In this document: positions 3,201-58,132 of the stretch, piece by piece
Layout: each line of letters begins with the position of its first letter
Numbering within the stretch: the stretch's first letter is position 1
From: a virus
DNA: 64,000 nt
Strand: one strand, 5' to 3'
Virus record (IMG/VR): IMGVR_UViG_3300045999_010033
Coordinates: 1-64,000 of that record
Notes under the pieces: generated by a model
Databases searched by the model: none
The model's input: only the letters and a program-made list of their open reading frames with translations
Told to the model about the DNA's origin: nothing
Program-made: the position numbers and the translations under genes

Positions 3201-4235
3201 TCATCGGCGAAACAATTTACGCAATCCGCGGAATATAAGCCCAACCGGAGTAGTGAGGCCCAGAAAACGAATTGCAGTATTTGCAACACCAACCGCACGG
3301 TCCACAATAGTACGACGACCTCCCTCATCAACCGGAGAGGCAGGAGCAGTATCTTCGGCAGCCGGTGGGGTCGTATCCGAAGTAGAATCGGCAGCCCCAA
3401 TGGCGGTCACCACATCGGCACCGGCATTGCCACGTTCGGTTGGTCCACTATCCACTCCCGCAAGACGAGTTTCCTTGCGTACCCTTTGGCGATTCGGGTC
3501 GGGGCCTTGCGCCGGCGGTACTTCCGTAATGGCGGAAACAATCAGGTCGGATTCCCCAACACCTTCGGGTAGTACACCATCAAAGTAGATATCGCCAATA
3601 CGATTAAAATCTACACGTAGGTCGGCAAGACGTTCCGACACACGCTTAACTATTTCGGCAATTCCATTGTAATCAATCCTGCCACCCTCGGCCGGTGGAG
3701 CAATCTTTAATGTGGCGTAGGAGTAATCCGCACCCAATCCCAAATCCGATAACCTCCACCTGTCAGCGGGCCTTTCGGCAGATGGGCTAATAGTCCAATT
3801 TATTTGCTCCAGAATCCCCTTTGGCACCGGACCAGGGTCATCATACGACCAATCCACTTCCGTCACCCCAGCGGTACGGAGAACGAATTCCTGTTGGGCC
3901 GCAAGCCCTTGTAGACCTGAAACATCTACCTTTATGATTGGTACGGCATCACCCATAGGGGCAGCCAGTCCGGATACTGTCTTTACTTCGCCATTGCGGG
4001 TGTACCAATAGTGTGGGTCACCGCCCTCTCGCGCAGCAGAAAGACTCGCGAGTGTTTTCGGGCTAACAAGCAGCCGCCCCGCGCACTCCACAATAATTCC
4101 ATCTGCCTCCAATAGGGGTAGGAGTTCACGTTCCGGCGAAAGACCGATGGCAAGTGGGGTTACTGCCGGAGGATTGGCAGCCACGAGCACTTCATCACCT
4201 ACCCGGCTATACCTTTGTGGATTTTGCCTTATCAT
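3201..4235 (-). CDS. hypothetical protein encoded in GC-rich island
   Basis: 344-aa ORF; local GC visibly far above genome background; Ala/Gly/Pro-rich. Confidence 0.5.
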   Translation of the reverse strand: MIRQNPQRYSRVGDEVLVAANPPAVTPLAIGLSPERELLPLLEADGIIVECAGRLLVSPKTLASLSAAREGGDPHYWYTRNGEVKTVSGLAAPMGDAVPIIKVDVSGLQGLAAQQEFVLRTAGVTEVDWSYDDPGPVPKGILEQINWTISPSAERPADRWRLSDLGLGADYSYATLKIAPPAEGGRIDYNGIAEIVKRVSERLADLRVDFNRIGDIYFDGVLPEGVGESDLIVSAITEVPPAQGPDPNRQRVRKETRLAGVDSGPTERGNAGADVVTAIGAADSTSDTTPPAAEDTAPASPVDEGGRRTIVDRAVGVANTAIRFLGLTTPVGLIFRGLRKLFRR

Positions 4236-7237: not shown

Positions 7238-7483
7238 TTAGTCAGATTCGAACTGCATAGCAACGCCCGCCCAATACTGATGCCCTTCCGGTGTTTTGGC
7301 CCATGTGAACGATTCATTGATAAACGAATAGAACGAATTAAAATCACGATTTAAGTATTCCGATATGATATGGGGTTGGCCATAATCATCCGGCTTTGAC
7401 GATTCCGTTTCACTCAATCGTTTCAGAAACAATACTTGCAGTTTATATGGTATCATCTTCAACCATTCTAGTCCTTTCTTCAT
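7238..7483 (-). CDS. TPEGHxYW-family small protein (paralog 1 of 7)
   Basis: Shares WL..LPYKLQVLFLK...GF.W..TPEGH.YW with six tandem neighbours. Confidence 0.55.
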   Translation of the reverse strand: MKKGLEWLKMIPYKLQVLFLKRLSETESSKPDDYGQPHIISEYLNRDFNSFYSFINESFTWAKTPEGHQYWAGVAMQFESD

Positions 7484-7492
7484 ATCTTATAT

Positions 7493-7720
7493 TTATTTAT
7501 ATCTTTCATTCGCGATAAGACTCCAATAATCATGCCCTTCAGCTGTATCTGACCATGTAAACCCTCCACATATAAAATCATGAAACTCTGTAAATTCATA
7601 ATTTAAATATCCAGCGATGCTTTCCAGTCCGATGTACTTCCCGCATTCGGACAATCGTTTCAGAAACAATACTTGCAGTTTATATGGCATTGTTGCCAAC
7701 CATTCTACTCCGGTTTTCAT
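7493..7720 (-). CDS. TPEGHxYW-family small protein (paralog 2)
   Basis: Paralogy. Confidence 0.55.
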   Translation of the reverse strand: MKTGVEWLATMPYKLQVLFLKRLSECGKYIGLESIAGYLNYEFTEFHDFICGGFTWSDTAEGHDYWSLIANERYK

Positions 7721-7941
7721 ATCAATTGCGCATTATATATCTTATTCCAATATTCGTGTCCTTCCGGTGTATCACGCCATACAAACCCGGCATCTATAAA
7801 AGATTCAAACGTGTCAAAATCATAAGATAGAAAGGTAGCTATAGTCCCTTTATCTTTTGGTCGTTTGTGATTAACCCGATTCTTACAAAATAGGATTTGG
7901 TCCTCTTTACTTAATTTACCCAGCCATTCTACCGCTTTCAT
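7717..7941 (-). CDS. TPEGHxYW-family small protein (paralog 3)
   Basis: Paralogy. Confidence 0.55.
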   Translation of the reverse strand: MKAVEWLGKLSKEDQILFCKNRVNHKRPKDKGTIATFLSYDFDTFESFIDAGFVWRDTPEGHEYWNKIYNAQLI

Positions 7942-7950
7942 ATCTTATAT

Positions 7951-8190
7951 TTATTTATCTTTATGTGCAATCGTATCCCAATAATCGTGCCCTTCGGGGG
8001 TATCTTCCCACATAAATGCATGGTCAATAAACTGACTAAACGAATCATATTCAAGAATCAGATATTGCGCGATTGTCAATCCGCGCTTTGTAACCTCTCC
8101 ACGATTTCTGTGGTTTACTCTATTCTTACAAAATAGGATTTGGTCTTCTTTACTTAATTTACTCAGCCATTCTACTCCTAGCTTTCTCAT
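7951..8190 (-). CDS. TPEGHxYW-family small protein (paralog 4)
   Basis: Paralogy. Confidence 0.55.
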   Translation of the reverse strand: MRKLGVEWLSKLSKEDQILFCKNRVNHRNRGEVTKRGLTIAQYLILEYDSFSQFIDHAFMWEDTPEGHDYWDTIAHKDK

Positions 8191-8409
8191 AATATATGTT
8201 TTTATACTTTAATTAATATCCACATTGTATTGTCAAAGTCCATTGCCGATTGAACCAACCGTAAGATAATATAATCGCTTTAGTATAAACACCAGTTTCC
8301 AAAAAATGGTCTGAATGATATACAAGCTGAATATACGGAAGGATGTGCCATTCATCTCGCTTCCACACCGGCCGGCGGTAACGGCTGAAGCTTATTATAA
8401 TACCATTTT

Positions 8410-8622
8410 TCATATTCTAAAGATTTCGGCAATATCAAACCAATAATCGCCTCCTTCCGGCGTTGACTCCCAAATGAAATTTCCACTAACAAATTCGCTT
8501 ACATTATCAAATTCGGATGAAAGAATATCGGATATAGTTTTTCCTTGTGAAGCACAGTTCTTCAAAAATTGAACTTGGACTTTATACGATAGCATCTTTA
8601 AACAATCTATACCTTTTATCAT
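8410..8622 (-). CDS. TPEGHxYW-family small protein (paralog 5)
   Basis: Paralogy. Confidence 0.55.
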   Translation of the reverse strand: MIKGIDCLKMLSYKVQVQFLKNCASQGKTISDILSSEFDNVSEFVSGNFIWESTPEGGDYWFDIAEIFRI

Positions 8623-8626
8623 TTTA

Positions 8627-8848
8627 TTAACTATTTAATTTTTGATATTTGCTATGCATTCTAACCCAATATAGATGTCCTTCCGGTGTATCATTCCATC
8701 CGAATCCAGCAATTATAAAATGCGCCACATCATCAAACCCATATAGCAATTTATCCGATATATTGATATCTTGATTGGCCATATTTTTTAATATCTGAAC
8801 TTGCATCTTATATGGTAACTGCAGCAAACAATCTATTCCCTTCATCAT
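8627..8848 (-). CDS. TPEGHxYW-family small protein (paralog 6)
   Basis: Paralogy. Confidence 0.55.
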   Translation of the reverse strand: MMKGIDCLLQLPYKMQVQILKNMANQDINISDKLLYGFDDVAHFIIAGFGWNDTPEGHLYWVRMHSKYQKLNS

Positions 8849-9099
8849 TATATTCGGTATTTTGATAGTATATCACTCCAATATTGTCGGCCTTCGGGTG
8901 TGCTATTCCAAACGAATCCACGCTTCATAAAGACTTCAAAACTTCGACATTTACTTTGCAAAAAGAAAGAAATGGATCCGACATTATCAAGATTTTTTAA
9001 ATACTTAACCTGTACCGCATATGGTAATTTATTCAGATAATATAATCCGTTTTTCATTTTATATTCATTTTGCAGTCGGAGCGGGACTCGAACCCGCAA
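8848..9099 (-). CDS. TPEGHxYW-family small protein (paralog 7)
   Basis: Paralogy; N-terminus may overlap the tRNA-like element. Confidence 0.45.
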   Translation of the reverse strand: MRVRVPLRLQNEYKMKNGLYYLNKLPYAVQVKYLKNLDNVGSISFFLQSKCRSFEVFMKRGFVWNSTPEGRQYWSDILSKYRI

Positions 9100-9160
9100 C
9101 GCTAAACCGTATAGGATGAGATGACCGTTTCCTCATTATAAGCTATCCGACCGACCAGCC
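9072..9160 (-). tRNA. tRNA-like gene (T-arm GCGGG-TTCGAGT-CCCGC and acceptor GGTCGGA/TCCGACT clear; anticodon arm not resolved)
   Basis: Canonical T-loop and 7-bp acceptor pairing on minus strand; about 80 nt; anticodon undetermined. Confidence 0.45.
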
Positions 9161-9162
9161 GA

Positions 9163-9606
9163 TTACTTCAGTAATCCGGCGATTGCTTTCACTTTATCCA
9201 ACTTACTCATTGAGCCGTTTTCGATTGTAGTGAGAGCCTGCCATACCTTAAATTCATTTTCATCGTATTCCGTTACACCGGCTTCATCCATCCAAGCGAT
9301 TACGGCGTTGGCCTCGTCGATTTGGGCTTGATGTTCGGCAATCTCCTTTTGGTAATCTTCCCTAGTGATACCTACTACTTTAGCGTCATATTCTTGGAGC
9401 CAATTACCCTGCCATAATCCATCAAGCGTCTCGGCCGTTAGTACCTTACCTTTAATGGTTTTAACACGATATTTTTCTCCGATGGTATAATTTGCAGATC
9501 CCTCATTTCCAGTTACTACGATAATATCTCCTACTTTTGGCTTCTTACTCATTTTTAATTTGATTTTTAAGTTGTATATAAATTGTTTAATCCGATTTCG
9601 TTTCAT
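9163..9606 (-). CDS. paralogous protein family B, member 1 (conserved C-terminus IAWMDE.GV.EYDENEFKVWQALTTIEN.SMSKLDKVKAIAGLLK)
   Basis: Three tandem paralogs share the C-terminal 60 aa. Confidence 0.55.
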   Translation of the reverse strand: MKRNRIKQFIYNLKIKLKMSKKPKVGDIIVVTGNEGSANYTIGEKYRVKTIKGKVLTAETLDGLWQGNWLQEYDAKVVGITREDYQKEIAEHQAQIDEANAVIAWMDEAGVTEYDENEFKVWQALTTIENGSMSKLDKVKAIAGLLK

Positions 9607-9613
9607 AATTCGA

Positions 9614-10036
9614 TTATTTCAAGAGAGCGGCGATGGCCCTTACCTTGTCCATCTTACTCATTGATTCATTTTCAATTGTAGTAAGTGTCTGCCAAACCTT
9701 ATGTTCGTTTTCATCATACACATCCGTACCGGTCTCGTCCATCCAAGCAATAATGGATTGATTGTGCTCAATATCAGTTTTGAGTTTGCTAATCCTTCCG
9801 GTCAGCGTTTGGATTTCGGATTCGATTGCGGCTTTATCTACGGTGCCTGGATCACAATCTTTGTACTTCAGATTATTACCTTTCCATACTCCATCCAAGT
9901 CTCCGGCCATAAATGTGGTGGCGCCGGTATGGGCTAGGACTCGATACCTTTTACCAATAGTATAACTGTGTGAGTTTGAATTAGCCTTTACAAGTACAAT
10001 GTCTCCGACCTGAGGAAGTGCTTTTAACCTTGCCAT
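9614..10036 (-). CDS. paralogous protein family B, member 2
   Basis: Paralogy. Confidence 0.55.
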   Translation of the reverse strand: MARLKALPQVGDIVLVKANSNSHSYTIGKRYRVLAHTGATTFMAGDLDGVWKGNNLKYKDCDPGTVDKAAIESEIQTLTGRISKLKTDIEHNQSIIAWMDETGTDVYDENEHKVWQTLTTIENESMSKMDKVRAIAALLK

Positions 10037-10088
10037 ATTTGTTTTGTTTTATTTATTTAAGTTTTTGTTTTTAATTATAAGAATAGAA

Positions 10089-10487
10089 TTAACCCTTAAT
10101 CATTTGAGCAATTCGTTTCACTTTGTCAATCTTGCTGATATTCTCATCTTCCATAGCCGTCAGCACCTGCCATACCTTAAATTCATCTTCATTGAACACA
10201 TCGGAGCCGGTCATCGACATCCACGCAAGCATACTATGCCTATCTTCAATGAGTGCCTGTGCTTCGGAAATATCCTTCAAAAGTTCATCTTTGGTCATCT
10301 CCCAAATCTCTACCTGCGAAAACTTCAACCATCCACTCTCTGTTCCCGGTACAGCTGCCAATTCAGCTTTCAGAGTATTATCCGACCTATCTATACGTGT
10401 AATACTATATTTTATATCTTTACGATATCCATCCACGGTTGCGATAACTCTAATACATGCTCCGATTTTAACTTGGTCTGCTTTCAT
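10089..10487 (-). CDS. paralogous protein family B, member 3
   Basis: Paralogy. Confidence 0.55.
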   Translation of the reverse strand: MKADQVKIGACIRVIATVDGYRKDIKYSITRIDRSDNTLKAELAAVPGTESGWLKFSQVEIWEMTKDELLKDISEAQALIEDRHSMLAWMSMTGSDVFNEDEFKVWQVLTAMEDENISKIDKVKRIAQMIKG

Positions 10488-12264: not shown

Positions 12265-12283
12265 ATGTTTTTATTTTTATTTG

Positions 12284-12376
12284 TAGTCAGGACAGGATTC
12301 GAACCTGTACAAAGTTATTTACTATTACCTTTGCCAGCTCGGATGCTGGTGTGTCTACCTATTTCACCACCTGACC
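12284..12376 (-). tRNA. class-II tRNA-like element (acceptor GGTCAGG/CCTGACT, D-arm, long V-arm, T-arm ACAGG-TTCGAAT-CCTGT; anticodon loop non-canonical 6 or 8 nt)
   Basis: Manual fold; one of three related copies (also 51344 and 52019). Confidence 0.5.
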
Positions 12377-15392: not shown

Positions 15393-15950
15393 TTAGTGTA
15401 TTCCGAATCGCTGCTGCCAATAAGGTCGTAACACATTCAGCCCTATCGTATGTTCTAATGTATGCGTTGAGAATGCCGTCATTATATGCGATTTGAATGG
15501 AAGGGGTAGGGCATAGTTAGATGTTGGGTCCAGTTTCGGAATGTATCCATCATCGCTCATCAGTAGATACAGTTCCGATATCAGGGGTAACGGAGTGTCC
15601 AAATGGTGTAGCGGCATATTCCATTCCTTATAAACAGAAGTATGTGGTTGAGCCGCACCGTTGTGTATTCGGTGATGGGAAATGGATAGTCCTGCATAAC
15701 GTGTTCCATCGGAGTAGTAGAATGGTTCTCTGTTCATGTAAAGTTTATACATTACAACAGTTCCAGCTGCGGTTGGTTCGGATTCGAATATTATTATGTA
15801 ATATTGAGCGGCATCGGATTCGTATATCTTTAGATTGACTACCGGTCCTAATATTACATTTATTATGTGTCCTAGTTTATCTATATTATGTATTGTCAAT
15901 CTATTACTCATAAGTTTTTTTATTAGTGTATTCCGAATTGATTTTACCAA
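15393..15950 (-). CDS. family C paralog 2
   Basis: Paralogy (..LTIHNIDKL). Confidence 0.5.
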   Translation of the reverse strand: MVKSIRNTLIKKLMSNRLTIHNIDKLGHIINVILGPVVNLKIYESDAAQYYIIIFESEPTAAGTVVMYKLYMNREPFYYSDGTRYAGLSISHHRIHNGAAQPHTSVYKEWNMPLHHLDTPLPLISELYLLMSDDGYIPKLDPTSNYALPLPFKSHIMTAFSTHTLEHTIGLNVLRPYWQQRFGIH

Positions 15951-16351
15951 TAAGATGATAACATTTGTTTACTTATTCTATTTGGTAGGTAATCATCGTG
16001 CTTAACCAGTCTTGCAATCACTTCTGCTAATGGATTGGGTTTGGTTAAAGTAGTTAAGTACATTTTAAATTCTCTTATTTTAGGTAAGGGATTCAATTGG
16101 CCATCCTCAACATTATGTGTAGTGAATCGCATTCTAATATAAGGTTTGCCACTTGGGGATACCAATATGGTCCTTTCTATGTTTAAACTATGTTGCTTTG
16201 CGTATTTACCTTCTGCCGTATATTCGTTAAATGCTATCCAATATCTATCTTGGTCACTTCCGAAAAAAGGTGGTGATATCATGTCACCCATTTTAAAATA
16301 AATGGCACTTACCAATTTATCCATATTATATATGGTCAGCTTTTTACTCAT
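15944..16351 (-). CDS. family C paralog 3
   Basis: MSKKLTIYNMDKL. Confidence 0.5.
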   Translation of the reverse strand: MSKKLTIYNMDKLVSAIYFKMGDMISPPFFGSDQDRYWIAFNEYTAEGKYAKQHSLNIERTILVSPSGKPYIRMRFTTHNVEDGQLNPLPKIREFKMYLTTLTKPNPLAEVIARLVKHDDYLPNRISKQMLSSYW

Positions 16352-16353
16352 AC

Positions 16354-16785
16354 TTATTTAATTACATTTATTAATATGGGATGTTTACGCAAAAAGGATT
16401 TCTTATCGTATTCGATTGATGTTTTGCATTGTGGATAGTAATCATCGTCTATTATCATACTCCATATATCATCAATCAAATCGTATGGATATTTTAGTTT
16501 CAATAAAGCCATAGGCCATCGGTAGTTCAGAATGGGGTTTTGTTCTTTGAATATAGATAAAGTAATATACACACATGGTATCCCATCTATATCGGTCGGT
16601 TCTCTATCAATAGAAAATATATAAACCCGTCCATTTACCTTTTCCATAATAAATGCGTATTCCAACTCAGTCGTTTTTGAACGAATATCTAAAAGTTTGT
16701 CATCATCTTCGAAATAATAGTGCGACATTCCACCTAATATGTTAATCAAATACATTTTATTGTATATGGTTATTTTCTTACTCAT
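16354..16785 (-). CDS. family C paralog 4
   Basis: MSKKITIYNKMYL. Confidence 0.5.
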   Translation of the reverse strand: MSKKITIYNKMYLINILGGMSHYYFEDDDKLLDIRSKTTELEYAFIMEKVNGRVYIFSIDREPTDIDGIPCVYITLSIFKEQNPILNYRWPMALLKLKYPYDLIDDIWSMIIDDDYYPQCKTSIEYDKKSFLRKHPILINVIK

Positions 16786-16789
16786 ATCT

Positions 16790-17227
16790 TTATATTGAAA
16801 AACTATGACTGATATTATTCATTATTGGATTAGTATTGCCCAAATTTACTCTCATCTTCGGAATGTGGTCCTCACGACGCACCATAGTTAGTAAGTTAGC
16901 CGTAATGGGCCAATGGTCTTTTAATGATGGTAAGGCTATAGGGTATGTTCTCCTATTACGAAGTTTTGATAATACATCGGTTGTAGCTAGCTTGATATTG
17001 ATATACTTTATCGGGTGGGATGCCGATGCTGTATCTATTTGTATATTCCGAAATATAAAAAGTTCGTGTTTTTTGATTACAGTTCCCATATCATCTGCCT
17101 CTTCAAAGTATAACCAATAATACGTATCGCATTCGAGGGTACAGGTGTTATTAAACGTTAAAGGAAGTAGTGTCTTACCTTCGTCAAGTATTTTACTTAC
17201 ATTTAATATCGTCAACTTTTTACTCAT
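16790..17227 (-). CDS. family C paralog 5
   Basis: MSKKLTILNVSKIL. Confidence 0.5.
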   Translation of the reverse strand: MSKKLTILNVSKILDEGKTLLPLTFNNTCTLECDTYYWLYFEEADDMGTVIKKHELFIFRNIQIDTASASHPIKYINIKLATTDVLSKLRNRRTYPIALPSLKDHWPITANLLTMVRREDHIPKMRVNLGNTNPIMNNISHSFSI

Positions 17228-17769
17228 ATATTTTGTGTCAATGAACTATTGGGGTGTATATTTACACTACTCGTAACATTCATACTACCACTTATATTAC
17301 CATAATACGCGGGATTAACTATTTTTTTTGAATACCGCGAGGATACACTCTGTCTTGGTGTAAACGGTCCATTTAGTATTGTTGATATACTAGCAGATGT
17401 ACTCCCACTAAACATGGGTATGAAATTCTCATCATCAATCATTCCCTTTATTACATGTCCCAACACATCGGGGGCATACAATGATTCGATTGGCATTAAC
17501 CAAGTGCGTGGATTTTTAACGGTAAACGCCCGGTCTCTATATTCTAATCGAATTAGACAATTATCAGTATGATCAAATGGGTCTACACGAATTATCCTAT
17601 CTATTATAAGCCACCACTGTCCTAATACTTTATCATCATACGCACTCCAAAACAATTTATACTCATCCGGATAAACAATCACATTACGATTACGTCCATC
17701 TTCGACTGGAATAGTAGGGAATACTTTTTCTAGATTATTTATATTTAGTAACTTATTCATTGGTTTCAA
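17224..17769 (-). CDS. family C paralog 6
   Basis: MNKLLNINNLEKV. Confidence 0.5.
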   Translation of the reverse strand: MKPMNKLLNINNLEKVFPTIPVEDGRNRNVIVYPDEYKLFWSAYDDKVLGQWWLIIDRIIRVDPFDHTDNCLIRLEYRDRAFTVKNPRTWLMPIESLYAPDVLGHVIKGMIDDENFIPMFSGSTSASISTILNGPFTPRQSVSSRYSKKIVNPAYYGNISGSMNVTSSVNIHPNSSLTQNI

Positions 17770-17771
17770 AA

Positions 17772-18155
17772 TTAAACTCCACGTGGAATGTAGTCCTCTA
17801 CTCCTGCCATATTTAAAATTTCAGATACCAATCGGACGTAATTCTTTAATTTGGATATGGGTATATTAAATCGACGTGTATGAGCAATCGGATTTGTACT
17901 TCCATCTACGATTTCATTTGTATTGAAACCTATCGTAACACATCGTATCGAATCTGGACTTATATGCTGTATATACCTGCTTATGTTTACTCTACACTCT
18001 TTTATTTTAATCCCATCATTTGTTCGACATTCAAAGTATATCCAATAGAAATCTCTATCTTCTCCGCAATGGAAATTGTAAAAGTTGTCATGTGCATATG
18101 TTCGACAGGCGTGACATGCCTTCTCTATATTATTTATAGTCAATATATTGCTCAT
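17772..18155 (-). CDS. family C paralog 7
   Basis: MSNILTINNIEKA. Confidence 0.5.
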   Translation of the reverse strand: MSNILTINNIEKACHACRTYAHDNFYNFHCGEDRDFYWIYFECRTNDGIKIKECRVNISRYIQHISPDSIRCVTIGFNTNEIVDGSTNPIAHTRRFNIPISKLKNYVRLVSEILNMAGVEDYIPRGV

Positions 18156-18160
18156 ATCCT

Positions 18161-18595
18161 TTAAAGTCTTTTTAATGTTTTTAAGGCTACCTTACGAGAG
18201 AGATTGAGGTGGTCGTATTCCGTTTTCACTTTGGATTTGGGATTGATATCGTATGACGTATCCATTTTAATTAAATCCATTACTAATTCAAATGGGTCAT
18301 TCAATAGGTGCAATCCTAGTTTCCATTCTCTCACAAATTGAGGTTGCATCTGCGGTTTAGTAAGTAACCGTAACCATATACATGGGTGGCCGGTATCAAC
18401 ATCCATTTCTATGAATCTATATATGCGCAATACATAATCAATGGTCTCCCTATTGTTATTAGACATGAATATCATTCTGTATGAATCGTGTTCATCAATG
18501 ATTGGCCCAACCGTTATACCGCCTCTCATGCTGTTCATCAGTGCCAACAGTTTATGTGGATTGTTTATAGTTATTAACTTTTTCATTGGTGTCAA
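18161..18595 (-). CDS. family C paralog 8
   Basis: MKKLITINNPHKLL. Confidence 0.5.
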   Translation of the reverse strand: MTPMKKLITINNPHKLLALMNSMRGGITVGPIIDEHDSYRMIFMSNNNRETIDYVLRIYRFIEMDVDTGHPCIWLRLLTKPQMQPQFVREWKLGLHLLNDPFELVMDLIKMDTSYDINPKSKVKTEYDHLNLSRKVALKTLKRL

Positions 18596-24673: not shown

Positions 24674-24883
24674 TTATATAAAAAGTTTAATTAATAAAAT
24701 AAAGTATATAAAGTTCGTTGGGCCAATAAACCAAAAGAACACATCCCTTCGGTTTTGGCGTTGTTCGGGTGTTTTAGAATCCAACATCCATTCTGCTATT
24801 TCACCAAAGTAAAATACTGAAATTATTGGAATCCACCAAATCCATTTTGTATTGTATAGTTCTTCATACATTTGATTTACCAT
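24674..24883 (-). CDS. WWIP-motif small membrane protein (paralog of 26464..26661)
   Basis: 'KWIWWIPIISVFYFGE' vs 'KWYWWIPIIGLYFIEE'. Confidence 0.5.
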   Translation of the reverse strand: MVNQMYEELYNTKWIWWIPIISVFYFGEIAEWMLDSKTPEQRQNRRDVFFWFIGPTNFIYFILLIKLFI

Positions 24884-25449
24884 TTAATTCGTGTCTTCAC
24901 TTCGGTAATATGTTTACAAGTCTTCGGAGTTTGTTTTGAGAACATATACCCCGGACAACTACATTCCCAATATTCGTCCGCAGTAAGTGTTACCGTATAA
25001 TAGTCCGTGCCATTTGAAGATTTGACTATATATGGTCTATTTTCCGAAACGACGAGTGGTATATTACTCAAATCCATCGTAGATTTATTTAGCTTTACAT
25101 AGTTTGGATAGTCGGTATTTCCTTTTAAGAAATTGATAAACATATTGTATAATCCACAAACTTCAGAATAAAACAGTCCTACCGACTGGACATTACTTTT
25201 ATAAAAGGGTAGATAAGTATCGTGCCATATACCGGAGTGCCCCGCCCCTCTAAGGCACACTCTAATATGAAGTTTTTCATTTTTCCAATCCATTGCACAT
25301 AAAAGCGCATCCACACGTTCATCTTCAGGAAAAATCCAAAATGAATCAGGAGCCGCATTCCGGTCTGCGATTACAATACGAAACCCATTTTGTGTCTTTT
25401 TTGGTTCGGCGTAATCTGCCAACTTTTGAAATCCTATCGGTTTGTTCAT
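24877..25449 (-). CDS. SWIM zinc-finger protein
   Basis: 'CSCPGYMFSKQTPKTCKHITEV' CxC...CxH SWIM signature at C-terminus. Confidence 0.55.
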   Translation of the reverse strand: MNKPIGFQKLADYAEPKKTQNGFRIVIADRNAAPDSFWIFPEDERVDALLCAMDWKNEKLHIRVCLRGAGHSGIWHDTYLPFYKSNVQSVGLFYSEVCGLYNMFINFLKGNTDYPNYVKLNKSTMDLSNIPLVVSENRPYIVKSSNGTDYYTVTLTADEYWECSCPGYMFSKQTPKTCKHITEVKTRIKW

Positions 25450-25691
25450 ACATTGTTATTTTTTACCGAGTTCATAAAACGTGCTTTCGGGTCGTCAAAC
25501 ATATTGGAAAATTCACTATCTAACTTTCCAGCTTCATATGCCGCATCGGCCAATTCCATACGTTGGTCTTCCTCCATTTGTTTGGCGTGTTCAAAGATGT
25601 TAGGCCTTTCTCCTTGTGGAGTACCGTACTCTACTTTGTAAAGATGTTCGAATAACCATTCAACTGCCGTTTGCTTTTTAATTTCTGACAT
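25446..25691 (-). CDS. hypothetical protein
   Basis: ORF track. Confidence 0.4.
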   Translation of the reverse strand: MSEIKKQTAVEWLFEHLYKVEYGTPQGERPNIFEHAKQMEEDQRMELADAAYEAGKLDSEFSNMFDDPKARFMNSVKNNNV

Positions 25692-25705
25692 AAAAAATAT
25701 TTTAA

Positions 25706-26035
25706 TTATAAAAGTTTATTCCATACCAATCTTTCTGCTATGAATTTAAGGAAAGCGATAAATGTATCCGATGTCTTTATACTATCGAGATCAATAGATG
25801 CATCCTGAACAACATACGTTCCAACATTTCCGCTGCCTCTCTCACATTTTTTTACATTAAAAGAATTTACCTTCCAGTTAAACTCAAACCATAAAGCGTG
25901 TCCGTTAAATATATCATGCACATCTTCATATACCCATACATTATTATTCCATGTCTCTGCTTCAATACGGCATTCTACATTATCAATTCGGAATCTAGCA
26001 TCATGTATCTTGTTAAAGTTGTTAATAGTCACCAT
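25706..26035 (-). CDS. hypothetical protein
   Basis: ORF track. Confidence 0.45.
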   Translation of the reverse strand: MVTINNFNKIHDARFRIDNVECRIEAETWNNNVWVYEDVHDIFNGHALWFEFNWKVNSFNVKKCERGSGNVGTYVVQDASIDLDSIKTSDTFIAFLKFIAERLVWNKLL

Positions 26036-26119
26036 AGTGTTAATTTTTTAATATTAAATACGTTAACATAGTCACCAATGCAATTAATCCCCAAAACGAT
26101 TGGTCTTTTAGATATCGTT

Positions 26120-26464
26120 TCATTTACGTTTCTTTTTAGATTTTGCTTCTATAATATGTTTACAATCTCTGCCTCGTCCGAAAGCATGGGCGGGACAGTT
26201 ACAAGTCCAAAAATCATCATCGGATTTCACTTCATAGATTTCACCTTTACTACCAACATAATGCCATTCGCCATTTGGTTTACGTTTCGGTGTTTCTGGT
26301 TTCGGTTGGATAGTTTCTTTAATCCACAATTTTTCCAATTCATTCCAACTATACTGCCGACTAACCTCAATCCACTTTCCATTTGCGATGATGTACCATC
26401 TCCCACTTACGGGGCCCTGAACACAAGTGGGAGGATAAAAACTTTTGAACTTTTCCATAAACAC
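26120..26464 (-). CDS. SWIM zinc-finger protein (second copy)
   Basis: 'CNCPAHAFGRGRDCKHIIEA'. Confidence 0.55.
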   Translation of the reverse strand: MFMEKFKSFYPPTCVQGPVSGRWYIIANGKWIEVSRQYSWNELEKLWIKETIQPKPETPKRKPNGEWHYVGSKGEIYEVKSDDDFWTCNCPAHAFGRGRDCKHIIEAKSKKKRK

Positions 26465-26661
26465 TATTTAGATACTAAAAGAATTATTAGAACCAATCCC
26501 AATACGTGATATGCCATATTGAAATAAGCGATTAACATTCGTTTTACATAAACAGATGTTTCGATGGAATCAAATACCCATCCGGACATTTCCTCAATGA
26601 AGTATAGCCCGATTATGGGAATCCACCAATACCATTTAGTATTTAGTATTTCCGTTTTCAT
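26464..26661 (-). CDS. WWIP-motif small membrane protein
   Basis: Paralog of 24674..24883. Confidence 0.5.
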   Translation of the reverse strand: MKTEILNTKWYWWIPIIGLYFIEEMSGWVFDSIETSVYVKRMLIAYFNMAYHVLGLVLIILLVSK

Positions 26662-40161: not shown

Positions 40162-40530
40162 TTATATTGTTTTTACTATTTCAATGAGTTTTTTGAGACA
40201 CGCTAACTCTGCTTCTTCGTATGTGTAAAAATCATACTCTCCACCTTCGTTGGGAATGTGATACCTCCAAGCGTTTCCAAGTTCGGAGTAACAAGTAATG
40301 ATTGGACTTGCTTTATACTTCTCACGAAAGAATCTGAATGCTTGTTGGTATAGCGGTGCTTCGATGTAATCGATAGAATCCCCATGGATTCTTGAATCCA
40401 ATTTCCACTCACCGCTATATTCAAACAAGTTCCAAAACCCAAAATAATCATCTGCATCAAACCCAAGTTGTTTGAGTTCATATGCTAATTCGTAAGGAAC
40501 AAAGTCTTTCATTACTTTATAATTTTTCAA
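40162..40530 (-). CDS. hypothetical protein (paralog of 46883..47278)
   Basis: Shared MKDF.P...ELKQLGFD...EAELACL.KLIEIVK. Confidence 0.5.
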   Translation of the reverse strand: MKNYKVMKDFVPYELAYELKQLGFDADDYFGFWNLFEYSGEWKLDSRIHGDSIDYIEAPLYQQAFRFFREKYKASPIITCYSELGNAWRYHIPNEGGEYDFYTYEEAELACLKKLIEIVKTI

Positions 40531-46009: not shown

Positions 46010-46348
46010 TTATTGTATAGATAAAAGATAAGTTTTTAATTTTTTCAAAACAACTTCGATGTTAAATGCTATTCGATATGGTCGTTTTAAACGGTGTTCA
46101 TCTATATTAATGTAAGTCACACGATGCCATCCCATAGCAAATAGCTGATATGTTCCATCGGAAAGGGGAGTTTTATATAAGATAACTTCCACAATCGGTC
46201 CGAAGGAGTTATTCTGTGCGTATGGTATATTTCTAAACCTAAATGCATAGCTAGGTCTACCTGCTACAAGCACTTCACCTACACTTTCTATTACGTGCCC
46301 ATCGCACTCCATTCCAACTGCCCTATCAATATTTTTTATGATTAACAT
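46010..46348 (-). CDS. hypothetical protein (paralog pair D, member 1)
   Basis: ML.IKNIDR..GM.C.G...YQLFAMGW..V. Confidence 0.5.
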   Translation of the reverse strand: MLIIKNIDRAVGMECDGHVIESVGEVLVAGRPSYAFRFRNIPYAQNNSFGPIVEVILYKTPLSDGTYQLFAMGWHRVTYINIDEHRLKRPYRIAFNIEVVLKKLKTYLLSIQ

Positions 46349-46357
46349 TTGTGAAAT

Positions 46358-46687
46358 TTATTTGTGTGATTCAATCCAATGTTGTAACTTCTTCAATACA
46401 GTTTTAATTCTACCAGCCAAACAATGGGCATGACGTATGTCGGATTCATCAACGTAAATAAACGTTACTTTCTGCCATCCCATAGCAAATAGTTGATACT
46501 TTCCATCAGAATTAGGAACTCTCTCCAATACAACTTCAACGATTGGACCACGAAGGCTACTCTGAACCCAAGGTATATCAAATTTAAATGTGTATCTAGT
46601 TTTGGATGCGTTTTGTCCAGCATCCATTACATCAATCCCATTACAAAACATTCCGATAATCCTATCAATATTTTTTATAACTAGCAT
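46358..46687 (-). CDS. hypothetical protein (paralog pair D, member 2)
   Basis: Paralogy. Confidence 0.5.
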   Translation of the reverse strand: MLVIKNIDRIIGMFCNGIDVMDAGQNASKTRYTFKFDIPWVQSSLRGPIVEVVLERVPNSDGKYQLFAMGWQKVTFIYVDESDIRHAHCLAGRIKTVLKKLQHWIESHK

Positions 46688-46703: not shown

Positions 46704-46886
46704 TCAGATGTACTTACTAATATCTTCTTTCTCAATCTCCACTATCGAGTCATCAAGGATTTCTTTGTTATCGTGTCCGACTACAATGGCGGTATAGAAC
46801 TTGCCATCCAGTTCATAGACTTGATAAGCTGAGTCTTTTACCCATTCCCCTTCTCCAATTAAGGTTGCTTTATCTAGGTTTATCAT
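46704..46886 (-). CDS. hypothetical protein
   Basis: ORF track. Confidence 0.4.
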   Translation of the reverse strand: MINLDKATLIGEGEWVKDSAYQVYELDGKFYTAIVVGHDNKEILDDSIVEIEKEDISKYI

Positions 46887-47278
46887 TGTTTTTGTTTTAC
46901 TATTTCAATGAGTTTACGGAGACAAGCAAGTTCTGCTTCTTCTTGTCCATCAAAACTCCCAACCCAAATAGATTCATCTTTATTTTCATCTTGAATCCAT
47001 ATTTCGTACACCTTAGAAAAGGTATCAGGCATTTCAATTACTACTGATTTTCTATACCTAACAAAACTAATAAATAGCCCATAGTTCTTACGAAAGAATC
47101 TGAATGACTGTGAAAATGTTGGACTGAGAGTTATACCATCGCCTTGTCTATCAAAAGACTTTGAATAAAACTTTTTGTTTAGGAAATGTGCAAAACACGG
47201 TTCATCAAACCCAAGTTGCTTCAACTCAAACGCATCTTTGAATGGGATAAAATCTTTCATTGTTTTTGTTTTAGTCAA
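46883..47278 (-). CDS. hypothetical protein (paralog of 40162..40530)
   Basis: Paralogy. Confidence 0.5.
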   Translation of the reverse strand: MTKTKTMKDFIPFKDAFELKQLGFDEPCFAHFLNKKFYSKSFDRQGDGITLSPTFSQSFRFFRKNYGLFISFVRYRKSVVIEMPDTFSKVYEIWIQDENKDESIWVGSFDGQEEAELACLRKLIEIVKQKQ

Positions 47279-55989: not shown

Positions 55990-57060
55990 AAAGGTGAGAT
56001 TACCCTTTGTTGAGAACAGCCTTTAGAAAGATTATTAGTTCCTCTCTTATCCACCACCTTTTGAGCGGTATCCGTTCAGTGTCGGTTAGTAATGCTAACC
56101 ACTCATTAAGTTACTGACTACTCTCTTATTACTCCCCTTCTTCTACCCTGCCGAGCAGATTCACACTTGCGGTGTTAGAAGCTTTTCGTAAGAATCACAG
56201 ACCTCTTGCGGAGGTATCGTGGCTGGGAACAACTCCCAACTATGTAGACACCTTTCATCCGTAACTGATGGGCACTTATGCTTCATTTTGATTTTATAGT
56301 TTTGCTACCAAATGCAAGTATAAAGTTGGTTTGTAGATTGATTCAGGTAGTGGCCCATCTGCCAGCTCCCTCACCTTTTGAGTGAGGAAATACTAAACTA
56401 CCCGATGTGATATCCCTATCACCATATTTTAAGTCTGCTTCATAACTCATGCTTTGGTAAGCGAAGGTTAAGGGCAACAACGACACCACTCGTACTTTAC
56501 CATACCTTTCGGTTTTAAGTGAACTCTAATATTGGATAACGAAATGATACGAAGGGATTAAGTTCGTACTTCTCACATATACCCTATGGGTTATTCCTAT
56601 TATCCTTCCGGATTCAAATGAACTATCTACTTAGCCCATTCACCCAGACACCTCACCTACAGCCTTGCCGTCAGTTACTAAGTCCGAGTGGTATCCCACT
56701 TGCCTACTCAACCTCTTTTGGGAGGCGCATCGGTGCTTAACCAAACACCAACACTTTATCCTACTTTCGTAGTTTATTTAACGACCATAGGCGGCCGATT
56801 TGTACTATGTAACGCGAGGTTACTATGTACTCATTTCGTAATGTAAAAGAACTTTAATGTGAACCAAACTTACGCCCTATTAAGGATACTCCGTTTATAC
56901 TACTTTCACATCTGAATCGGTAGTGCGATTTTACTAAAGATAAGTAAAGTTTTTCAAATTACCAAATCTTTATTCGTTGAACATTTTCGGTTATGTTTAT
57001 TTACACCATATAATACTTCCTACTTCTGAACAAGTTTATAAAGTTAAGTAAAGTTTTTCA
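55990..57060. ncRNA. about 1.07-kb ORF-free region flanked by tRNAs; candidate large structured ncRNA
   Basis: No ORF of 60 aa or more in any frame of ORF track; internal short repeats (CACCTTTTGAG, AAGTAAAGTTTTTCAA). Confidence 0.35.
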
Positions 57061-57657: not shown

Positions 57658-57659
57658 AA

Positions 57660-57810
57660 AGTGGACGTGGTGGGAGTCGAACCCACGTCTTGATAAGAAA
57701 TCCTACCACCAACGTATCACAAGTTTATTCCTACATTCGGGTTGGACACCTATCTAACATTCTCACACCGTGTTAGCCGACGGTGATAGTGGTTCGATTC
57801 GGCCACTATG
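57660..57810 (-). pseudogene. tRNA-like remnants (T-arm GTGGG-TTCGACT-CCCAC at 3' side; class-II D-arm-like GCATAGTGGCCGAAT at 5' side)
   Basis: Fragments resemble the class-II tRNAs elsewhere but no consistent acceptor pairing. Confidence 0.3.
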
Positions 57811-58132
57811 CCACATAGAGAATCACATTCTATTTTAATCCCACGATGTGTGCGGGAGCGGTTACGCAGCTACTGCGTACTCAGCGTTGGCGTATGTGTT
57901 GCCAGTTATTCTTCGATACAATATTAAGGGATAGTATCATTTCCCTACTTGTGATGGTAACACTCACATACCAATCAATTACCAATACACGCCCATATTT
58001 ATAAGAACTATATATCTCCCATTTTTGGTCGATAACCAAAGTTACTACTTTTTTTTGGATTTACCAAACATTTCGGAAAATATTTTTTAAATCGTTGAAA
58101 ATCAACCGATTACGTATTAAAAAAAGAAATAT

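Follow-up and report, generated by a model that had tools for sequence, protein, structure and literature searches.

Proteins of the TPR, ankyrin, and HEAT types are tandem-repeat helical scaffolds and adaptors. Phage anti-defence proteins, on their part, include the Acr proteins, DNA mimics of the Ocr/ArdA type, and nucleotide sponges such as Acb2 and Tad. A precedent for the amplification of one small domain in a large phage has been described in Bacillus phage G, which carries a lineage-specific expansion of about 35 zinc-ribbon copies (Iyer et al. 2021, PMC7824862), and these zinc ribbons have been proposed to be either transcription factors or structural DNA binders (PMC7824862). In the current study, we analysed a tandem array of seven small genes in a stretch of viral DNA of 64,000 nucleotides (positions 1 to 64,000 of IMG/VR record IMGVR_UViG_3300045999_010033), the whole of which is called the window here.

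Like the zinc ribbons of phage G, the domain encoded by these genes, here named the TPEG-YW domain, is a small and apparently non-enzymatic domain amplified within one large phage genome. Unlike the zinc ribbons, it is predicted to be all-alpha, is rich in aromatic residues, and does not have a metal-binding Cys/His pattern. Compared with phage G, the copies also lie close together in a single tandem array that comprises three conserved subtypes, and elsewhere the domain is found fused in repeats. The TPEG-YW domain resembles the TPR, ankyrin, and HEAT-type units in being a short helical unit with a predicted conserved core and variable surface, which occurs singly or as two to seven repeats within one chain. 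However, the unit is longer than in those proteins (about 70 aa, five helices) and looks autonomous, as it usually makes up a protein by itself, and with neither a sequence nor a fold match to them it is not a member of these groups. With the Acr proteins, the Ocr/ArdA-type mimics, and the Acb2 and Tad sponges it shares its small size, its accessory and apparently non-enzymatic character, and a presence and copy number that vary between related phages. Helix-hairpin-helix domains (i.e., the 8-kDa domain of family X polymerases and the N-terminal domain of RAD51) are one further comparator.

The source of the window is a jumbo phage. All long ORFs lie on the minus strand, and the window encodes 24 tRNA genes, a tmRNA, and a full-length GOLLD RNA, besides NAMPT, a PRPP-synthetase-like protein, two RNA ligases, a DNA ligase, MoxR-type and other AAA ATPases, an SPFH protein, and a response regulator. 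Contigs with an identical copy of one of the array proteins are up to 221 kb long, and among GenBank phage records the nearest is that of an uncultured phage of 484 kb, at 34% amino-acid identity. A Bacteroidota host is probable, because a Shine-Dalgarno-like 4-mer was found for only 4 of 69 genes (with A-rich upstream regions), one related contig has been binned with a Bacteroidia MAG, and about 20 of the 29 motif matches in a genome collection fell in Bacteroidota MAGs (Tidjanibacter, Alistipes, and others).

The seven genes form a genuine array of protein-coding paralogs (69-81 aa), all in one orientation, over positions 7238-9057 (Table 1). A preliminary description of the window had reported seven tandem ORFs with a common motif between 7238 and 9099, and all of them were found there on the minus strand. 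The paralogs align over their full length with a pairwise amino-acid identity of 36-59%. In a six-frame translation of the 64 kb window, the pattern W..T.EG..YW matched seven times, once in every array ORF and nowhere else. Across the seven copies, no variation is seen in the columns M1, L, Q, K, I, L, F, F, W, T, E, G, Y, and W. The motifs 'WL' and 'GF.W..TPEGH.YW' had been ascribed to all copies; the C-terminal core of this claim stands, but only four of the seven copies have the N-terminal W, and the G of GF as well as the P and H of TPEGH are replaced in one to three copies each. The head-to-tail packing was likewise seen, with junctions of -4 nt (ATGA overlaps) to +9 nt instead of the spacers of 0-10 nt given before.

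Table 1. Features of the array locus in the window. Array genes are numbered in transcription order.
Feature	Coordinates	Strand	Remarks
Array gene 1	8848..9057	-	subtype A, 69 aa from ATG 9057 (most likely start); HMM match E 4.6e-26
Array gene 2	8627..8848	-	subtype A, 73 aa; its ATG and the stop of gene 1 have one base in common
Array gene 3	8410..8622	-	subtype A, 70 aa
Array gene 4	7951..8190	-	subtype B, 79 aa; copy modelled with AlphaFold2
Array gene 5	7717..7941	-	subtype B, 74 aa
Array gene 6	7493..7720	-	subtype C, 75 aa; start overlaps the gene 5 stop (ATGA)
Array gene 7	7238..7483	-	subtype C, 81 aa; identical to metagenomic protein P0006 (15 contigs)
Embedded 66-aa gene	8213..8413	-	unrelated to the array family; ATG overlaps the gene 3 stop (ATGA)
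tRNA-like element, conserved	9073..9152	-	directly upstream of array gene 1; context

The lengths of 70-83 aa in the preliminary description agree with the ORFs of six copies as listed, but the copy of 83 aa is probably shorter. The longest ORF of array gene 1 (8848-9099) starts at a TTG and has 83 aa, while the first in-frame ATG, at 9057, gives 69 aa. This ATG is most likely the true start and not TTG 9099, because the extension from the TTG would overlap the conserved tRNA-like element and the orthologs of array gene 1 in two related lineages (L008 and L010) begin at the equivalent ATG. The tRNA-like element itself reached 25.9 bits with the Rfam tRNA model, under the gathering score of 29, and was called by ARAGORN in pseudogene mode only; compared with L008, L010, and L001 it has only 1-2 differences over about 95 nt. 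A gap of 220 nt within the array had also been noted. An interval of 219 nt (8191-8409) is present between array genes 3 and 4, but it is not empty, being filled by a gene of 66 aa. We regard this ORF as a real embedded gene because an ortholog with 61% identity occupies the equivalent place in another lineage (related phage contig L013). The gene is also called in L001 and L005 and is absent from L008 and L010, and searches of Pfam and PHROG gave no match for it.

One could argue that the motif arises artefactually from a DNA element present in repeats and that the ORFs are not real genes, given that the region contains direct repeats of 24-72 nt with 60-91% identity and a period of about 230 nt. 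These repeats are simply the diverged genes. The nucleotide identity between copies is only 48-66%, the invariant L, G, T, K, and I columns each use 2-4 different codons, and in columns with identical amino acids the codons are identical in only 33-74%. Because synonymous codons differ at invariant residues, the constraint acts on the protein and not on a DNA repeat, and the synonymous variation which the preliminary description had named as the check on this point thus came out in favour of protein-level constraint. Besides, none of the seven frames is interrupted in four diverged lineages, most orthologs have a dN below dS, hundreds of unrelated phage contigs encode homologous proteins, and the AlphaFold2 model is confident. 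With the low nucleotide identity, the codon variety, the open frames, and the distant homologs all against it, the DNA-element reading is refuted and has next to no chance of being correct.

Protein-level selection is also seen within the subtypes. Over the N-terminal 26 codons, paralogs of the same subtype have a pN of 0.05-0.22 versus a pS of 0.28-0.94, which indicates that their N-terminal similarity is kept by selection on the protein. Gene conversion as the source of the near-identity between the N-terminal halves of adjacent paralogs was rejected for most pairs on the same values. Between orthologs, dN/dS is mostly 0.24-0.9; array gene 1 has values of 1.2-2.0 versus two relatives, with few substitutions. 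The pooled dN/dS of the array is about 0.5, compared with 0.37-0.48 in the flanking genes, while dN and dS are both 1.4-2.5 times higher in the array than in these genes. The array evolves faster than its flanks but is still subject to purifying selection, and a clear arms-race signal is missing. Pervasive positive selection is unsupported, the pooled ratio being similar to that of the flanks.

Four related lineages carry the array at one conserved position, between a three-gene family of paralogs of 132-147 aa and a group of genes encoding 128, 64, and 56 aa. In a neighbour-joining (NJ) tree the copies fall in three clades, i.e., the subtypes A, B, and C, and the orthologs are collinear. While the window and its near-identical strains have seven copies (three A, two B, and two C), L008 has 11 (three A, four B, and four C), L010 has 10 (two A, four B, and four C), and L012 has five (one A, two B, and two C). 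The number of B copies equals that of C copies in all four lineages, two of which (L008 and L010) are close relatives, and the four extra genes in these two are ordered B-C-B-C. Besides, in all six of the closest two-domain fused proteins (in the range P0046-P0052) a B-type domain comes first, by a margin of 18-38 bits, and is followed by an A- or C-type domain. The equal B and C counts and the B-then-A/C order in the fused proteins suggest, by Rosetta-stone logic, that B copies probably function jointly with C or A copies; for B and C this would be as pairs or hetero-oligomers. Copies from the wider loci cluster by genome in an NJ tree, so that the arrays represent independent lineage-specific duplications. 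Tandem duplication is a general habit of the genome studied here.

All seven copies match phrog_16354 (E 5.7e-7 to 2e-3), and the PHROG matches of the window copies (E 3e-7 to 1e-2 overall) cover only their C-terminal 20-45 residues. The PHROGs matched (16354, 25460, 10949, 20568, 38635, and 30073) are all annotated as 'unknown function', with neither a structure nor a description, and hold the same C-terminal module, F-x-W-x-x-T-x-E-G-x-x-Y-W; one domain family is thereby divided among several clusters. Relatives with multiple repeats match PHROGs far more strongly (E to 4e-25). The slightly broader motif F-x-W-x2-[TS]-x-[EQ]-G-x2-[YF]-W, near the C-terminus of a domain of ~70 aa, is present in 7/7 copies and is also the consensus obtained from 98 diverse domains of homologs. 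On the other hand, no Pfam or NCBIfam family came near threshold for the seven copies, 50 relatives, and 20 multi-repeat relatives; none of 50 family members matched PADLOC-DB, which holds defence and not anti-defence proteins, at E <=0.01; and a sequence-profile search of the PDB returned only chance-level matches, e.g., 'KTPKG' of OXA-1. This is in agreement with the earlier designation as an expanded family of unknown function, in which the copy number varies among related phages (5, 7, 10, or 11). The region has no DNA similarity to any of 50,697 GenBank phage records, and tblastn of one copy had Pseudomonas phage TC6_061 as its sole match (E 4e-3). Nothing relevant to the motif strings, or to tandem families of small proteins in jumbo phages, came up in a literature search.

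The search for the family in metagenomes that had been proposed earlier did yield independent homologs, with E values down to 1e-29 for a profile built from the seven copies. HMMER against 1.84 billion representatives gave 1225 homologs at E <=1e-3 and 96 at <=1e-10, and a word-indexed search gave 45 close homologs, all of them metagenomic hypothetical proteins of 68-90 aa. About half of the best 150 representatives have more than one copy of the domain per chain, with a period of 60-90 residues and up to seven copies (examples are P0053, P0063, and P0092, the first two of which reach seven). A second protein search with the broad 98-sequence profile gave only 5 matches and nothing on co-domains. 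At the DNA level, a scan with a degenerate motif pattern recovered 109 IMG/VR contigs and 29 GTDB genome stretches, and 137 of these 138 loci were confirmed by HMM. Among the confirmed loci, 110 are single-copy, 14 have two genes, four have three copies, and one, an unrelated jumbo-phage contig of 266 kb (L026), has twelve tandem genes; in seven IMG/VR loci two domains lie in one ORF without an internal stop. The TPEG-YW domain is used in four ways: singly, in gene arrays, as repeats within a chain, and as an accessory of a ligase.

The AlphaFold2 model of array gene 4, made from a 50-sequence alignment, has a pLDDT of 90.9 and a pTM of 0.82 and contains five short helices. A fold comparison with the PDB, which includes solved anti-defence proteins, gave no match. 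Considering these searches, the TPEG-YW domain appears to be undescribed beyond the PHROGs of unknown function and to have no fold match in the PDB. The consensus of the 98 diverse domains reads G-x3-L-x2-L-x4-Q-x2-F-x2-N ... I-x3-L ... F-x2-F-I-x3-F-x-W-x2-T-P-E-G-x2-Y-W-x2-I; only W71 is invariant among them, and F59 is conserved at >=90%. In the model, the conserved L, Q, and K lie in helix 2, the I, L, and F in the middle of the domain, and TPEG just before the last helix. The conserved residues are mostly hydrophobic or aromatic together with TPEG, and a catalytic-looking set is absent, as would suit a binding protein. From residue type and predicted secondary structure, we infer that they make up the hydrophobic core, along with a turn capping the last helix. 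Model confidence is lowest in the loop between helices 2 and 3, the length of which varies. Within arrays, the net charge ranges from -7 to +7 and the pI from 4.2 to 9.8, array gene 1 being strongly basic (pI 9.8), while the medians of the wider family (pI 5.7, net charge -2) are on the acidic side. A uniform charge signature, as of a DNA mimic or a DNA binder, is absent, since net charge and pI vary so widely.

To describe the surroundings of the family, the nearest neighbours of the 137 loci were clustered with crude ORF rules, by which most neighbours are unclustered singletons. The recurrent ones recognised with Pfam are Lin1244_N (10), C5 DNA methylase and an HTH regulator (5 each), NinB (4, just under the Pfam cut-off), a Toprim-DnaB primase-helicase (4), and a DnaA_C-type HTH (3); a further cluster of three members resembles DnaB helicase by eye. 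Most recurrent neighbours belong to a replication, recombination, and modification module. Two of the best 150 representatives (P0138 and P0144) have TPEG domains fused to a glutamine synthetase (GS)-like carboxylate-amine ligase. As judged from the AlphaFold2 model of a homolog of this partner (P0198; pLDDT 91.5), the partner domain is predicted to have the GS / GCL / YbdK / PafA fold, with the acidic, His, and Arg residues in place. Its invariant residues include two acidic clusters (E184/E186/D189, and D214-S216-L217 with E224 and P228), C259-G260-G261-H262, R293, and E325/R327. Pfam and PDB sequence searches with the ligase partner gave no match. R2K ATP-grasp enzymes, for which a role in the modification of host proteins by jumbo phages has been proposed (PMC7824862), are neighbours in 3 of the 137 loci. 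The associations with the ligase and with R2K come from few cases and serve as leads only.

We tentatively propose, at somewhat under an even chance of being right, that the TPEG-YW domain is an autonomous helical module which serves in recognition or as an adaptor, without enzymatic activity, and that the array is a repertoire of three old subtypes with paired B and C copies. In this scheme, the core residues would be kept while the remaining surface and the loop between helices 2 and 3 would be free to diverge, and the array would supply a repertoire of the subtypes A, B, and C, with B and C copies working as pairs or hetero-oligomers. The repeats within one chain and the ligase fusion fit a role in bringing partners together, and in smaller phages the single-copy homologs are often located among replication, recombination, and DNA-modification genes. 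The preliminary description had suggested small inhibitor or decoy proteins; the fusions and the equal B and C counts favour a modular adaptor or hetero-oligomer role at least as strongly as an inhibitor.

The inhibitor reading supposes that the copies are anti-defence or host-takeover inhibitors, each binding and neutralising a different host protein (for example, variants of a defence system), with the size of the array set by an arms race. Small non-enzymatic proteins with divergent surfaces suit this role, as do the 5 to 11 copies across related phages, the independent expansions in different genomes, the raised dN and dS relative to the flanking genes, the dN/dS above 1 of array gene 1 versus its orthologs, and the many small accessory genes and further families of tandem paralogs in the region. 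We nevertheless consider it unlikely, because the pooled dN/dS is not above that of the flanks and the orthologs of each copy stay collinear across lineages, and because the occurrence of the domain in multi-repeat proteins and in the ligase fusion suits a general adaptor better; in its DNA-mimic form the idea also conflicts with a charge that is not uniformly acidic. Homology to anti-defence proteins did not emerge from the profile and PDB searches either. By another reading, the copies are small nucleic-acid-binding or replisome-associated proteins, such as accessory factors of origins, replication, or transcription, whose paralogs recognise different sites or partners on a large genome. Its attraction lies in the neighbours of the single-copy homologs (the replication-initiator-like Lin1244_N, primase-helicases, DnaB, DnaA_C-HTH, NinB, and methylases), in the strongly basic array gene 1, and in the precedent of the phage G zinc ribbons. 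However, charge is not conserved among the copies and the wider family is acidic, the sequences have no HTH or HhH motif and match no Pfam DNA-binding family, and the conserved positions are aromatic or hydrophobic and not basic, which makes this reading doubtful as well. A more specific version of the adaptor proposal can also be formulated, in which the TPEG-YW domain would be a new fold of recognition domain that forms B-C (or B-A) hetero-pairs and recruits specific target proteins to peptide or amide ligases encoded by the phage (the GS-like amidoligase or R2K ATP-grasp enzymes), so that it would be the specificity layer of a phage protein-tagging or protein-modification system, and the arrays its target repertoire. 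This version is speculative and, in our view, very improbable.

The domain is found in at least 1225 representative clusters and in hundreds of phage contigs, yet no Pfam entry, solved structure, or literature was found for it. The repeated independent expansion of arrays, the repeats within proteins, and the occasional ligase fusion make it tractable for structural and interaction studies. If the TPEG-YW domain is an adaptor or an inhibitor, this would annotate part of the 'dark matter' of the genomes of Bacteroidota phages and other phages, and it would shed light on the growth of jumbo phages by tandem duplication; as just one more accessory family, it would be of value for annotation only.

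With regard to the immediate surroundings of the array, sigma-70 promoter-like and intrinsic-terminator-like sites showed no enrichment in the array region. This region is rich in small accessory genes. Other tandem paralog families are also present in the window, among them the three-gene family immediately upstream of the array, at 9163-10487.

Besides the array of seven paralogs, the minus strand of the window carries further small-gene paralog families, mostly in tandem (see table), and the genome of this phage appears to grow in general by duplicating genes in tandem. The three-gene family lies immediately upstream of the array, an adjacency retained in all four related lineages, and searches of Pfam and PHROG returned no match for it. 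An expansion within the array's own domain family, independent of that in the window, is found in L026, a contig unrelated to this phage. Within the array, an exact 22-nt repeat, reading ATAAATAAATATAAGATATGAA on the minus strand, covers the stop-start junctions between genes 4 and 5 and between genes 6 and 7. This repeat may be a scar of duplication or, alternatively, a translation-initiation region that the junctions have in common.

Paralog families, RNA elements and other features in the window, and the related expansion in contig L026
Feature	Location	Strand	Remarks
Exact 22-nt repeat	7479-7500 and 7937-7958		
Conserved 66-aa gene, function unknown	8213-8413	-	Between array subtypes A (genes 1-3) and B (genes 4-5)
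tRNA-like element	9073-9152	-	Directly upstream of first array gene
Tandem three-gene paralog family	9163-10487	-	147, 140 and 132 aa; 39-49% identity
Unusual 94-nt tRNA call	12283-12376	-	Rfam tRNA 44 bits
Small-gene paralogs, 4+2 copies	15393-18586	-	25-31% identity
Two two-copy paralog families, interleaved	24674-26661	-	
Dispersed paralog pair	40162-40512 and 46883-47260	-	
Adjacent paralog pair	46010-46687	-	47% identity
GOLLD RNA, full-length	55991-56405	-	Rfam RF02032, 296.6 bits vs gathering score 150
tmRNA	57659-57994		Tag GNTYANAEYAVAA; adjoins GOLLD RNA
Twelve tandem genes of the array's domain family	L026, 2953-6616		IMGVR_UViG_3300002092_001784, 266-kb viral contig

The tRNA-like element next to the array is probably a functional RNA. 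Its acceptor stem and T arm are intact and its D and anticodon region is aberrant; the Rfam tRNA model gives it 25.9 bits, short of the 29-bit threshold, and ARAGORN reports it, in pseudogene mode only, as tRNA-Arg(cct). Compared with its counterparts in three related contigs (L008, L010 and L001), the element shows only 1-2 differences over ~95 nt, even though genes nearby have dS values of 0.06-0.36. No counterpart was recovered in the aligned stretch of a further related contig, L012, the coordinates of that stretch being a guess, and the predicted folding energy is no better than that of shuffled sequences (z -0.98).

The 66-aa gene embedded in the array has an ortholog at the equivalent position (3529-3723) of the related phage contig L013, with 61% identity, and no copy of it is present in L008 or L010. 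The GOLLD RNA sits inside a block of ~24 tRNA genes. The 94-nt candidate tRNA, which ARAGORN gives as 'tRNA-???' with a 2-base anticodon, may contain an intron or an aberrant anticodon loop. Of the window's 69 minus-strand genes that encode 100 aa or more, only 4 are preceded by a Shine-Dalgarno-like 4-mer; the sequences ahead of these 69 genes are rich in A, most strongly at positions -13 to -10, and this is the pattern expected for a Bacteroidota host.
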